Source: Octopus vulgaris
Lineage: Eukaryota
DNA: 64,000 nucleotides
NCBI GenBank assembly: GCA_951406725.2
Contig: OX597842.1
Location: forward strand, 13,206,001-13,270,000
Reading direction: 5' to 3'
Shown here: in pieces, positions 27,101 to 57,100 of the stretch
How the letters are laid out: the number at the start of each line of letters is the position of its first letter
How positions within the stretch are numbered: the first letter of the stretch is position 1
The notes under the pieces: generated by a model
The model's input: only the letters and a program-made list of their open reading frames with translations
Told to the model about the DNA's origin: nothing
The model's database searches: none
Translations under genes and position numbers: made by a program

Positions 27101-30100
27101 TTTCACTTTATTATTCGTTTATTGATTAGCAATTTATCCAATTATTTAATCGCCTGTTTGGCTCATCATTTGTTTCATTAATCAGTCAGTCATAGTCCTT
27201 TCGTCGCCAACGCAACCTCCTCAATGATATCCATGTTCTACTTCAAATCAGCTACAAGTCCGTCCGTCTCTTGAATTTTTGGTTATATATTTATGTATTT
27301 CTGTAGATATGTGAATGGGAATGTACGCGTGAGTGTGGAAGTGTGAAAGACACCGTAAGAAAAAGAAAGAGAGAGCGAAGAGGTGTATGTGTATGTCTGT
27401 GTACCGATGCATGTTTGTATGGTACAATTAATTCTGTGTGTTCGTGCATTAGACAAACAACATAAGTTTGCGCATGCCTATGTGTTATTGTGAATGCACA
27501 TACGTTGATGTATGTGTATGGTGATGTTTGTTCCTTCTCGAGCCATGCCTGGCTCATAAGGGCCGGTTTCCCGGTTTCCTTGGCGTATAGGTTCCCCACC
27601 TGGACGGGACGCCGGTCCATCGCAGGTGAGCTGCAAGATGCAGGAGGAAAGAGAGAGAGGAAGTTGTGGAGAAAGAGTCAGCAGAAGTTCGCCATTACCA
27701 TCTGCCAGAGCCGCATGGAGATTAGGTGTTTCGCTCATAAACACACACATCGCCCGGTCTGAGATTCGAACCCGCGATCCCTCGACCGCGAGTTCGCTGC
27801 TCAAACCACTAGGCCAGTGTGAAAAGTGTGGACGGTAAAACGATTATTTTTTATATATCTCTTGGTCTTGTTTCATACGACATTATAATGAGAACAAGAG
27901 AGAATATTCTGGAATGTTCTTAGTAACAATAAGCCGCAAGGTCTGAAATTTTGGGAGAGGATAATAATCGATTACATCGACCTCTGTGTTCAACTGATAC
28001 TTATTTTATCAACACCGAAAGAATAGAATCGATCTGGAAGGCGTTTGAACTTTGACCGTAAGAATGAACAAAATGTCGCTAAGCCGACGAGCCGAAGAAA
28101 GCGCTAATTCGTCGACTTTATTAGTGGTAATAATAAAATAACAACAAGGATGATTTTACTAACTTTTACATTCGGAATATTCCAGTATCGGTATTGATTT
28201 GGTTTGGTTATTGCCAACATCTGCCTGACACTGGCCCAGGACAGTCACATTTCTGTTGAACGTTGTTTTCGTATAATTTAGCAAGGCTGGCAGATAACAT
28301 CCACACATCATACCTGTATTGTTTGCGAGGTCGCTGCAATTATAAACAGAACTCTAAGTGAATGTACTTTAGAGATATGGAAAAACTCCTTCGGTATTTG
28401 AGAAGAAACAAGGATAATATAATTCCAGCAACAAGATTATAGAAGTAATGATATTCATGTTTCGTTCCAAAAGATGTTAAAAACAACAATAAAGTGAAAT
28501 GGTTTCTGGTGGAAATTGAAAACATATGAAGTTTTTACTATCTTATAGCTTATGTTTCGAATAATCTGAGACCACCTTCGGTCACGAATGGCCATGGGAT
28601 TGCACCTAGAAACTTCTACACATACATATATCAAATAAGTTCCCATTTGTCGACATAGATATGTATATATATATATATGTATGTATATATATATTCATAT
28701 ATATATATATATATGTATGTATATATATATGTATGTATGTGTGTGTGTGTGTGTGTGTATATATATATATATATATTCATATATATATACAGGGTAATGC
28801 AAAATATATATTCTCCCAGACATATGCACACACGTTCACAGATATTCACAAACAGTCACATACATCTACTGAGAGAGGGAGAGAGGGAGAGAGATATTAT
28901 AGGTCTTCGGACTAATGGAGAGCTATAAATGGGAGATGAGTAAACATTAAATATTTAGAAATATATACATTCAATGAAATAAATCAATATAAATGATCCA
29001 ACTTACAGATTTGTTAAACTGGGAAGATTTTGGAAGGCTCCTGATTCAATTTTCCTGATATCATTATAAGTCAAAACTCTGTAACATCAAGTTCAATTGA
29101 TGAGAAATTGAATGGAACAGATTTGTGATATACTATCACATATTAGACTAAACAATTGAACGACGGAAAAAAAGAAGAAAGTGGATTATCGGTGAAGGTG
29201 ATAAGCATAAAGATAACGATGAAGCAAAGAGAGGGAAAAAGTTGGTACCAATGATGTTATAATGATGAAGATGGCGGTGAAGTAGTTAATGGTAATTATT
29301 CTGATAATGATGCTCATTAGTACGGTTATCTTTATGATGATCATGATAGTGAGGATGATGATGTTGGTGGTGATGTCATTGTTGGATATGATAGTGATGG
29401 GGAAGGTATTGAAGTGGATTATACTAATGAATGATATTGAAGATGAAGATGATAATGAATGTGGCGATGTGGACAGAGACCGATAGAATAAGTCCTAGTG
29501 TCGATTTTCTCGACTAAAGGCAGTACTCCAGTATGGCCACAGGGAAATGAGTGAAACAAGTAAAGAATAAAAGAATAAAAGAAATTCAAGAATAGCTTTC
29601 AAATGCAAGGAACATTTTCCTTTTTTCTGCCTGTCTCTGTCTCTCTTTTTTACCCTTGTGGGTTTATAGGCAGTTAGCAGCAGCTAGTTCGTTATGAATT
29701 ATTTTCTTTGATTGTTTAAGCAGTAGTAGTATTGACGAAGAAGAAGAAGAAGAAGAAGAAGAAGAAGAAGAAGAAGAAGAAGAAGAAGAAGAAGAAGAAG
29801 AAGAAGAAGAAGAAGAAGGATGAGGGGTATGACAGTTGTAGAATGTTGATGGAATCTTCTTAAATGGTCAAGTGACCTAAAAGTGATTCGTTGTGGATGA
29901 TATTAGTTATTGAAATCGTTCTGAATAAATTCTTGAGAGGACGGTTTTGAATATATCGTTTTTAAAATACTTGCTTGGGTATTGTTCTACGGCCCTGGTG
30001 ATAGCGTCATTTGTTGTGGATGCGTTCAAAAGAGGTTTGTATTTTGTAATAAAGAATGACTCTTCATTAATGCGCCGACTACAGATTGTATCGTCCCTGA

Positions 30101-54100: not shown

Positions 54101-57100
54101 AACCAATTCAATGATTTTGCTATGGAGTACAGGAAGTACCTGTGCAGAAGAATAATTTTCAGTGGGTGTAGCTTGTACTGCAATATTGGCCCAAGAAGAC
54201 TTTCGACAGTGTGACAGAAAAATTGACAAAACCAGGAACATCCAAGACCTCAGGTTTTATTTCGGAGATTTCCTTCTCCTAGGTAGATTACCAACCAAGA
54301 TTAAAGAGCTTCTATAAGCCCATGACGTAAGCTATCCCATCCCAGACACCAGAGCGACACTCAGACACTCTATAAAGTGATCAGATATCACTCTGGCGAT
54401 CGACGTGGAGTAGCACATTCATAAAAAAAGGAAGGTACGATATGTGATTTGAAAATGTAAATAAGTATTATATATAAATATAAAAAAGTAAAAGATATGT
54501 GATAAATATAAATGTATATATAAAAGTATACATATATATACACATATAGAGAAATAAAAAGGTATGATGTGTGAATAAACAATATTGTATAAAGAATAGA
54601 AAAAGATATGCAATTATAAGATATAAAATATACATAAAGTAAAAATATACATATATATATAAATATACATATATATATATAAATATGCATCTATATAAAA
54701 ATATACATACATATATATATGTATATATATGTATATATATATATATACATATAAAAGTTATATACACATTAACAGATATGTTGTTGGATGGCCGTTGACT
54801 GTTCAGGAGTTCATTATACATACATACACACATACATATATATACATCATACATGCATACATACATACATACATACAAACATACATTTATATATATTCAT
54901 CATACATACATACATACATACATACATACATACATATATATACATCATACATGAATACATACATACATACATACATACATACATACATACATACATACAT
55001 ACATGCAGGCATACATACATATACATACATAAATATATATACGCACACATATATATGTATGTATGTATGTATGTATGTATGTATGTATGTATGTATGTAT
55101 GTATGCATGTATGTATGTATATATATATGTTTGTTTGTATGCATGCACAAAATGCTTCACTTGATGTATCATATTCACATATATGCAACACGCACTCGTA
55201 GTCCATCACACAAGTTCACAAACAAATACGTGCTACAACTGGGCGTGGGTGAAATTATACGAAATGACAATTTGAAAGAGCGGGAAATGGAAGATGCGAC
55301 GAATATATCAAGAAGACTGGTCTAACTTACAAATCTGCTAAATTGGGAAGATTTTGAAAGGTTCCTGGTTTGATTTCGTTTATATGATTGAAAGCCATAT
55401 TCCTGTAACATAAATTTCAGTTGATTAGAAATTGTGTAGAACAAGATCAGTGATAAAATGTCACGCATTGTGGATAAAGAACTGGATGATGGAGAAACGG
55501 TAACTAGATTATAATGACGTTGAAGATCATGATGATGGACATGATGGTGGCGTTGTTAGTGGTAAATATTATATGAAGGAGGAGGAGGGGAGGGGGAAGA
55601 GGGGAGGAAAAGGAAGAATGTGGTGATGGTGTTGATGACGATGATGTTATGATGCTAATGATGGGATTAATTACCTTGGTTGTAATTATTTGTGAGGGTG
55701 TTGTCGATTATGGTTCAGGATACTGATGATGATGGTGATGGTGATGGTGTTATGATGATGAAGCAAACGATGATGAACTATACGATATTGATGATTAAAA
55801 TACAGATGGCAAAGACCCTGGGGACATTCATGATGACAACAACGAGGACGATTAGGGTTAGGGTGAGGGTTAGGTCATGGCGTCGATGGTGGTGACATAA
55901 ATAGTACAAGTATTCGATGAGCAGAAAAGAAAAAAAATAGTTGAAAGAGTAAGAAGGAGAAAAAGGAAAAGAAGTTGAAGAAGAATGAAGAGAAAAGAAG
56001 GAACAGAAGAAGAAGAAGAAGAAGAAGAAGAAGAAGAGGAGGAGGAGGAGGAGGAGGGGAAGAAGAAGAAGAAGAAGGAGAAGAAGAAGAAGAAGAAGAA
56101 GAAGAAGAAGAAGAAGAAGAAGAAGAAGAAGAAGGAGAAGAAGCATAAGAAGACGAAGAAGAAGAAGAAGAAGGAGAAGAAAAAGAAAAAGAAGGAGGAG
56201 AAGAAGAAGAAGAAGGAGAAGACGAATAAGAAGAAGAAGATGCAGAAGAAGAAGAAGAAGAAGAAGAAGAAAATGAAGAAGAAGAAGAAGAAGTGCAGAA
56301 GAAGAAGAAGAAGAAGAAGAAGAAGAAGAATGAATCACCCTCTTAGAATAGATTTTTCGTAGAAAACGATGAAAAAATAGTAATTTTAAGAAAATTTATA
56401 ATTTTTAGCAGAAATTTAAAACCTGATGAATGAAGTTTTAAATACAGAAATAGAAGCAAGAGTCAATTATAGTAATCAGTGTTAATCTAAAGATAAAAAC
56501 AGTACATGACATACATACAGAATTACAAACACATGTTAATACTGTTGCATACACGAATCTATACACAATATGTGTGTGTGTGTGTGTGTGTGTGTGTGTG
56601 TGCAAATAGACACACACTTATATAGATCTCTATATATGTAGACACATGTACACATCTCCGTGTGTGGGCTCGCATGGAGGGGGGGGGCAGAAGTATGTAG
56701 AATTGGTGTGTTCAGAGGTGCATGTGTTCATTATGAATACAATTACAGCAGTGACCTTCTTTGACAAATTGCAGCCCTTCTGTCTCTGGCCATCTTCGAC
56801 TCCCTGCAGTTCCATATTTTTTCGAATTTCCGCCTTTTTGGCGAAAAGTCGCGTTAGGATTTTAAAATCTTTAATTAGCACAGAATTTGAGTCAAATAGT
56901 TTTCATCCATACATATATATATATGAATATAAATATAAATATAAATATAAATATAAATATATATATATATATATATATATATATATATATATAAAGGAAA
57001 TGAAGAAAATGCTGACAAAATAATTCAAGTAATTTAAGTAATTTAATTAGGTGAAAGTTCTTTTTACCGGTTGCGCATTTGTTATGCTTATCAAAATATA

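Follow-up and report, generated by a model that had tools for sequence, protein, structure and literature searches.

Receptors whose binding region is built from repeated modules are known from several lineages. Brown-algal LRR-ROCO genes, which encode candidate immune receptors, carry a variable number of 72-bp phase-2 exons of one leucine-rich repeat (LRR) each, with positive selection on the concave face (PMC11378527). The variable lymphocyte receptors (VLRs) of lamprey and hagfish hold 24-residue LRR modules between caps, and their germline genes are incomplete, being assembled somatically from donor cassettes with cytidine deaminases (PMC13428168). Tandem arrays of duplicated exons occur in another cell-surface receptor, arthropod Dscam (PMC13428168, PMC11378527), and gonadotropin receptor genes have phase-2 one-repeat exons (PMC11378527). 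Here we describe an array of eight separate 72-nt LRR exons (cassettes) in an adhesion G-protein-coupled receptor (GPCR) gene of Octopus vulgaris. The gene lies in a 64,000-nt stretch of contig OX597842.1 (assembly GCA_951406725.2, positions 13,206,001 to 13,270,000 of the forward strand), hereafter the window. We conclude that the array and its diversification signal are real, and that this diversification is germline rather than demonstrably combinatorial.

In its working, the octopus array resembles brown-algal LRR-ROCO exon shuffling and differs from both VLR and Dscam. Algal and octopus genes differ in lineage and in output: the LRR-ROCO proteins are cytoplasmic ROC-COR GTPases of an unrelated lineage, whereas the octopus output is a receptor with a GAIN domain and a seven-transmembrane (7TM) unit, and neither the gene model nor Pfam scans covering the exons and their relatives showed a ROC-COR domain. 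Splice variants have been reported for LRR-ROCO (PMC11378527) and were not found for the octopus gene. Unlike a VLR gene, the octopus gene is complete and in frame in the germline, with cassettes that are internal spliced exons. VLR diversity sits on the repeats' concave face. Dscam exons are mutually exclusive, whereas the octopus cassettes are joined serially, as seen in cassette-to-cassette transcript junctions. With the glycoprotein-hormone receptors and other LGRs the octopus gene shares an LRR ectodomain set on a 7TM unit, and LGR4/5 came top in the fold search; the LGRs, in contrast, are class A receptors without a GAIN domain. ADGRA2/3 are adhesion GPCRs with LRRs; no Ig domain was seen in the octopus gene. 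Both the LGRs and ADGRA2/3 have a fixed repeat number and a conserved binding face. Brown-algal LRR-ROCO genes were also treated by Zambounis 2012, as cited in PMC11378527. In the literature searched, with partial coverage of subscription journals, we found no description of a cassette architecture or of site-level selection in octopus.

Eight in-frame LRR cassettes in an octopus adhesion GPCR

By its sequence, the gene is an intact O. vulgaris adhesion GPCR with an LRR head, laid out as signal peptide, LRRNT, LRRs, LRRCT, predicted ferredoxin-like domain, hormone-receptor motif (HRM), GAIN domain with GPS, and 7TM. Guided by Octopus proteins matching the GAIN exon, 25 coding exons were fixed, all but the end of the last one. 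Apart from a single AT donor, all internal splice sites of this model are AG/GT, and the open frame, followed as far as the last exon found, codes for 1,066 aa with cassette 3 and 1,042 aa without it. The initial annotation of this DNA had supposed a cephalopod-like host and an LRR head coupled to a GAIN/7TM unit. The GAIN exon matched Octopus proteins in 32 of 32 cases, the best being an O. vulgaris protein with 100% identity, and the coupling was confirmed by the spliced gene model together with Pfam.

All eight cassettes lie on the minus strand and have phase 2 at both ends (Table 1); splice-site and weight-matrix scans agreed with the location originally given for them. A TTACAG acceptor precedes each of the eight, and the donor is GTAAGT after seven of them and ATAAGT after cassette 3. 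Scanning the minus strand of the window for 72-nt segments between AG and GT or GC returned the seven GT cassettes and 2 chance matches unrelated to LRRs. A weight-matrix scan between the cap exons returned exactly the 8 cassettes, with no ninth between the caps and 0 matches on the opposite strand. Cassette 3, with its AT donor, is probably a dead cassette that would be skipped in frame; an identical AT donor is present in cassette 4 of the neighbouring gene copy.

The initial annotation had further stated that every junction codon is Leu, Ile, Met or Phe and that any subset of the seven GT exons stays in frame. Only these four residues were indeed found at the cassette joins, and the frame was open in 128 of 128 subsets; across the arrays of the family, 133 of the 135 exons detected end in CT, TT or AT. 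Any-subset compatibility arises because one symmetric exon splitting a conserved Leu codon was duplicated, which requires no selection for splicing. It thus comes automatically and cannot count as evidence of alternative splicing.

Positive selection on the concave-face codons

Within the LRR motif LxxLxLxxNxL, the concave and usually ligand-binding face is made up of the x positions on or beside the strand, a role given to them in PMC11378527 too. For P0033, the closest O. sinensis protein, the AlphaFold model (pLDDT, the model's confidence score, 82) has the intron-split residues at the centres of the strands. At six codons fixed beforehand, cassettes at the locus showed a proportion of nonsynonymous differences (pN) of 0.39, against 0.034 elsewhere, in a comparison of all pairs, which are not independent; it counted as 72 nt the D exon of an inverted gene copy left of the window, which is actually 70 nt to its donor. 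This 70-nt exon was excluded from the main test and from the codon models.

The main test used 41 disjoint cassette pairs with near-identical flanks. At codons 1, 3, 4, 22 and 23, pN was 162.5/504.5 = 0.32, compared to a proportion of synonymous differences (pS) of 0.12 at the same codons (Fisher p 1.6e-5); pS over all codons was 0.094, and pN at the other 18 codons 0.036. The 36 pairs from other loci, which are out-of-sample, gave 0.31 versus 0.13 (p 1.4e-4). Codon 2, the buried Leu between variable codons, was conserved (pN 0.056). A mutation hotspot at the exon ends was considered and is argued against by this conserved Leu and by synonymous change that is not much raised. The flank distance of 0.031 was not used as a neutral yardstick, being biased low since pairs were chosen by it.

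Codon models were fitted to two sets of cassettes. For the 15 cassettes of the locus, omega (the nonsynonymous to synonymous rate ratio) at the variable codons was 10 with six sites or 15.5 with five, and 0.42 at the other codons in the six-site fit. For 28 cassettes of a second clade the values were 6.8 with six sites or 10.5 with five, and 0.27 elsewhere in the six-site fit; over the fits, omega at the other codons was 0.27-0.48. An omega of 1 was rejected in all four fits, and remained so when these variable sites had a rate of their own (p 7e-5 to 0.022). We conclude that the concave-face codons are under positive selection, and this is the strongest evidence for a diversification system.

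Germline variation in cassette number and order

Four cassette classes can be told apart, and they follow one another as ABCABCDD. Where cassettes are alike, their adjoining introns have a pairwise identity of 89-95%, over up to 3.2 kb, showing that introns were co-duplicated with the exons. From these sequences, the array formed by duplication of a three-exon block and of a single exon, with cassettes 7 and 8 as its youngest duplication.

The initial annotation had put forward genomic variation in cassette copy number as one of two sources of receptor diversity. Variation was borne out, for number and order alike. Next to the 8 cassettes of the window gene, the neighbouring copy ~80 kb to the right has 9 (ACBCCABCD) and P0033, whose LRRNT is identical to that of the window gene, has 10 (ACBCABCBCD), while 0-17 were counted over 19 arrays. 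These arrays are a sample of 49 LRRNT matches that is biased toward short arrays, and with a terminal cap-type LRR exon that scores near the threshold, the counts are minimum values, low by about one. They hold 135 exons, namely 10 cap-type exons, 5 with non-canonical splice sites and 120 intact cassettes with 113 different peptides; the 125 standard cassettes are spread at 2-17 per array over 18 arrays, with 0 detected in the remaining one (C2). In the next paralogue (G000:C29:13,395,770-13,461,200, plus strand, loci L018-L035) the array comprises 17 standard cassettes and a cap exon, and 3 of the 17 are retained by the public model.

Cassette 5' and 3' ends reassort between copies. One B-type 3' end, for instance, is combined with either of two different 5' ends, and of the latter one is itself combined with two different 3' ends, a pattern that fits gene conversion or crossover. 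Outside the array, the GAIN exon at window 10197-10368 is only 82% identical to that of the inverted copy (near G000:C29:13,157,900, L001), with neighbouring exons at 96-100%; this suggests conversion from another paralogue.

In one genome the family size is ~50-60 genes, with GPS clusters in tandem on C29, C30 and C31. The family is most likely the octopus-specific adhesion GPCR expansion described as group 3 by Ritschard et al. 2019 (PMC6408891), an assignment made by features, not by tree placement: matches are to Octopus only (32/32), LRRs are present in part of the members, a Death domain occurs (P0024), and the genes lie in the tandem clusters mentioned. That work covers 21-22 sequences, with LRRs in 5/22 and no positively selected site; a term search of PMC6408891 found 'splic' absent and 'exon' only in a figure legend. 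Compared with it, the present analysis finds 54 GPS, 61 LRRCT and 49 LRRNT matches in one genome (lower bounds, some copies being broken), one exon per repeat, and site-level selection. The O. bimaculoides family member P0024 / P0035 ends in its Death domain after the 7TM unit. Death domains are signalling modules typical of immune and apoptosis pathways.

Transcript junctions of the cassettes

The second proposed source of diversity, combinatorial splicing of the cassettes, was not supported in what was a small test: none of 8 transcript junctions needs the skipping of an intact cassette, the splice sites are full consensus, and frame compatibility is automatic. Four runs, guessed to be RNA, supplied the transcript contigs, and these were compared with window 38600-47100, which covers three of the eight cassettes; cassettes 1, 2, 6, 7 and 8 and both caps lie outside this region. 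Runs X2 and X7, from two studies, yielded 8 different cassette-to-cassette junctions in 9 observations, decoded by hand, with two intronic joints dropped from the junction table; runs X1 and X4 yielded no cassette junctions. All eight lie exactly at 72-nt boundaries and fit consecutive order; given these exact boundaries, we conclude that the exons are spliced as predicted.

In X2, a run that may be of another species than the window, 4/4 junctions correspond to consecutive junctions of P0033, three exactly at the peptide level and one with one residue changed. X7 has one junction in common with X2. It further contains four others. One is the window's own join of class C to D, where D is cassette 7 or 8; another links A to B at canonical sites of the window; a third leads from C to a D exon resembling the neighbouring copy's; and the last, from B to C, could stem from skipping of the AT-donor exon in the neighbour or from a converted allele. 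A, B and C are apparently joined in one transcript contig. At variable codons, five of the 8 junctions depart from the reference genome, pointing to change between alleles or species.

LRR content is identical in four annotated isoforms of one O. sinensis paralogue. Where predicted O. vulgaris models lack cassettes, this was not accepted as evidence of skipping, since such gaps are prediction artefacts. The long inverted repeats of the introns are mostly within-intron or simple repeats, and the 25 longest of 991 showed no cassette-specific pairing.

Proposed mechanism and alternative explanations

We propose that the LRR head grew by tandem duplication of one-repeat exons together with their introns, and that germline unequal crossover and gene conversion may add, remove and swap cassettes. 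Intact cassettes would be spliced in order, and dead ones lost in frame. With exon junctions placed inside the concave strands, as in the predicted fold of P0033, each gain or loss of a cassette would create a new hybrid strand that pairs new upstream and downstream residues. An extracellular ligand is predicted to bind the concave face and the signal to pass through the GAIN domain to the 7TM unit; signalling by a tethered agonist would be expected from what is known of adhesion GPCRs in general. The selective driver is most likely a changing non-self or allo-type ligand. For this reading as a whole, that is, a tandem-duplicated LRR head under positive selection, with germline gain, loss and swapping of cassettes, likely in-order splicing and predicted signalling on binding of a variable ligand, we estimate a probability of roughly 75%. 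The diversification is likely germline and inherited rather than produced by mix-and-match splicing.

Several points weigh against this proposal. The five-codon set is the six-codon set trimmed after the first result, the sixth codon having varied little. The 5 disjoint pairs at the locus alone gave pN 0.38 versus a same-codon pS of 0.095, which is not significant (p 0.074); against the all-codon pS the same pairs gave p 1.3e-5. Gene conversion violates the tree of the codon models and can inflate omega, and one own-rate fit ran to the boundary. The transcript test covers 3/8 cassettes in runs only guessed to be RNA, and contigs drop rare isoforms; the C to D junction cannot separate cassettes 7 and 8, hence a skip of 7 is compatible with it. 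P0033, compared here at the protein level, may not be orthologous to the window gene: its LRRCT is nearer to that of the neighbouring copy. Finally, the family's reported expression, which includes nerve cord, suckers, skin and gills (PMC6408891), does not point to immunity in particular.

The alternative closest to our proposal shares its evolutionary mechanism and differs in the class of ligand only. Here paralogue and cassette diversity would give the arm nervous system its cell-cell or chemotactile specificity, a possibility that we hold to be the strongest of the alternatives and still rather unlikely. An adhesion code was suggested by Ritschard et al. 2019 by analogy with protocadherins, and group 3 genes of O. 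bimaculoides reach their highest expression in axial nerve cord, suckers and skin (PMC6408891). The nearest solved folds, which belong to neural and developmental LRR receptors (LGR4/5, LRIG1, NGL-3, LINGO-1, LRRTM2 and FLRT2), also fit such a role, though the likeness is a generic LRR one. However, an omega far above 1 on the binding face of very young copies would fit an arms race better, and differences at the same codons between individuals or sister species, as well as dying cassettes, would likewise argue against a neural code; expression in gill and skin of C. minor (PMC6408891) also counts against it. Cells might instead skip subsets of intact cassettes, yielding many ectodomains per gene on top of germline variation. 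The 128 in-frame subsets would permit this, in brown algae, LRR-ROCO genes built from the same kind of 72-bp phase-2 exon show as many as nine splice variants (PMC11378527), and one X7 junction fits skipping of the neighbour's AT-donor cassette. Yet intact-cassette skipping is needed by none of the eight junctions, the four X2 junctions match consecutive ones of P0033, the four O. sinensis isoforms are alike in their LRRs, the splice sites are full consensus, and in-frame compatibility requires no selection for splicing, so that we regard combinatorial splicing as improbable. Just as doubtful is the most far-reaching scenario, in which 50+ signalling receptors would be diversified between paralogues, between alleles (in cassette number and concave residues) and by cell-type-specific skipping, with new hybrid strands on the concave face wherever a join is made, giving a G-protein-coupled, cell-variable recognition of non-self or allo-type ligands.

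Two further explanations fare worse. If cassette number simply drifted in a repeat-rich locus, with no meaning for recognition, introns rich in simple and dispersed repeats would favour unequal crossover and dead cassettes would be tolerated, as both are here. Neutral turnover predicts pN no higher than pS, however, whereas pN is ~3x pS at the five codons and under half of pS elsewhere, and omega is significantly >1 in two separate clades; this explanation is largely refuted and very unlikely to hold. Least probable of all is somatic assembly of the VLR type, in which immune cells would complete an unfinished germline gene with cassettes from flanking donors. Mosaic cassettes do show that conversion happens, and ~80 kb left of the window there are three cassettes with no cap exon close by. 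Against this, the germline gene is complete and in frame, its cassettes are internal and have their own splice sites, and the stray cassettes belong to an 18-kb piece with an assembly gap on either side.

Under our preferred reading, that of germline diversification, the locus would link variable recognition directly to G-protein signalling in an octopus family, and this large family of GPCRs, whose modular LRR face bears an arms-race signature, is a concrete candidate, open to testing, for allo-, chemo- or pathogen recognition. We found no diversified receptor system in cephalopods in the literature searched; a 2026 review of immune diversification, in the excerpts available, gives FREPs for molluscs and refers to cephalopods solely in connection with blood formation (PMC13428168). 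Even without splicing diversity, the published picture of LRRs in 5/22 members and no selected sites is revised. Cell-variable G-protein-coupled recognition, if true, has no animal precedent in the literature searched. Automatic annotation hides the family: a neighbouring model keeps 3/17 cassettes, and the public model P0001 of the window gene has no LRR part.

Gene model, neighbouring copies and repeats

Table 1. Coding features of the LRR adhesion GPCR gene, numbered from the first letter of the window
Feature	Position	Strand	Remarks
Signal-peptide/LRRNT exon, coding part	58340..58515	-	acceptor 58533, ATG 58515, ends in phase 2; Pfam LRRNT
LRR cassette 1	55331..55402	-	class A
LRR cassette 2	47422..47493	-	class B; Pfam LRR_8 match below cut-off
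LRR cassette 3	44590..44661	-	class C; donor AT in place of GT
LRR cassette 4	41109..41180	-	class A; peptide identical to cassette 5 of O. sinensis protein P0033; joined to B exon in transcript contig
LRR cassette 5	38794..38865	-	class B; also has transcript-contig evidence
LRR cassette 6	35320..35391	-	class C; junction to D exon found in transcript contigs
LRR cassette 7	32274..32345	-	class D
LRR cassette 8	29007..29078	-	class D; 2 nt different from cassette 7
LRRCT-like cap exon	28164..28333	-	phase 2 to 1; 61 genome matches
Predicted ferredoxin-like domain, three exons	19517..23991 (23991-23897, 21559-21507, 19674-19517)	-	gene model
Hormone-receptor-motif region, two exons	13357..15268 (15268-15154, 13526-13357)	-	weak Pfam HRM
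GAIN region, five exons	5139..10996 (10996-10765, 10368-10197, 7799-7647, 6459-6331, 5288-5139)	-	last exon bears GPS
Start of 7TM region	1..3194 (exon 3194-3079; exon beginning at 43)	-	rest up to ~5.1 kb left of window

Pfam matches above cut-off in the gene are LRRNT (26.6 bits against a cut-off of 25.8), GPS (E 8.4e-17) and 7tm_2, the secretin-type 7TM domain (E 8.9e-14 on the last transmembrane exon, in locus L005); those to LRR and HRM are weak, the latter with E 0.032, below the cut-off. An HL/T cleavage-type motif stands before the first transmembrane helix, and from this motif GPS autoproteolysis is predicted. The LRRCT-like exon by itself has no Pfam match and is named from its position and Cys pattern. 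The ferredoxin-like call follows from the strand-helix order in the P0033 model, with ferredoxin-like structural neighbours only under our naming bar; we presume the domain to be SEA-type, a label that is not a database match.

On the public protein model P0001 of the gene, a precomputed PF26588 match supports the GAIN region. A minisatellite of 14-nt units at window 20049-21295 lies in an intron and is translated by P0001 as coding, which is an annotation error. Both a terminal cap-type LRR exon and a Cys-rich domain, present in many paralogues, are missing from the window gene. The latter domain, which ends CC-x4-CN, follows the LRRCT in many paralogues (P0005, P0023, P0024) and is absent between window 28164 and 23991. 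It is also missing from the neighbouring copy, P0033 and P0034, and represents a second kind of module loss. It is reminiscent of three-finger (Ly6/uPAR) domains. In a structure search its only lead was a score of 0.76 to a TGF-beta receptor ectodomain, below the naming bar.

Right of the window, at G000:C29 ~13,302,000-13,343,000 on the minus strand (L009-L013), lies a paralogue's 5' half, made up of LRRNT, 9 cassettes, LRRCT and one more exon, and a 3' half, from a D cassette to the 7TM unit, lies left of the window on the other strand, at G000:C29 ~13,136,000-13,179,000 (L029-L003). Both halves end at 100-N gaps, and their ends overlap by ~9 kb at 95-96% identity; the 166-kb contig holding the window is therefore probably inverted in the assembly, the two halves being one gene. 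The D cassette of the inverted copy (G000:C29 ~13,137,430-13,137,500, plus strand, L029) is 70 nt to its donor, and its inclusion would shift the frame. It differs at variable codons from the D exon of the overlapping copy, and the two differing D exons are possibly two alleles of one animal. The three LRR cassettes without a nearby cap (G000:C29 ~13,118,400-13,127,100, plus strand, L027-L028), on their 18-kb piece, are probably a misplaced fragment of another family gene.

A tandem array of ~184-nt units occupies window 60240-62870, upstream of the gene, with shorter copies in introns at 8181-8581 and 35532-35923. Long near-perfect palindromes in introns, at window 12677-12924, 24527-24832, 25725-26023, 33518-33980 and 56909-57387, are possibly foldback elements. 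Decayed intronic reading frames are present at window 39296-39850, 50782-54059, 14652-15195 and 16274-17670; by eye, they resemble remnants of LINE endonuclease/reverse-transcriptase and DNA-transposase genes. The decayed frame at 39.3-40 kb was duplicated along with the A cassette.

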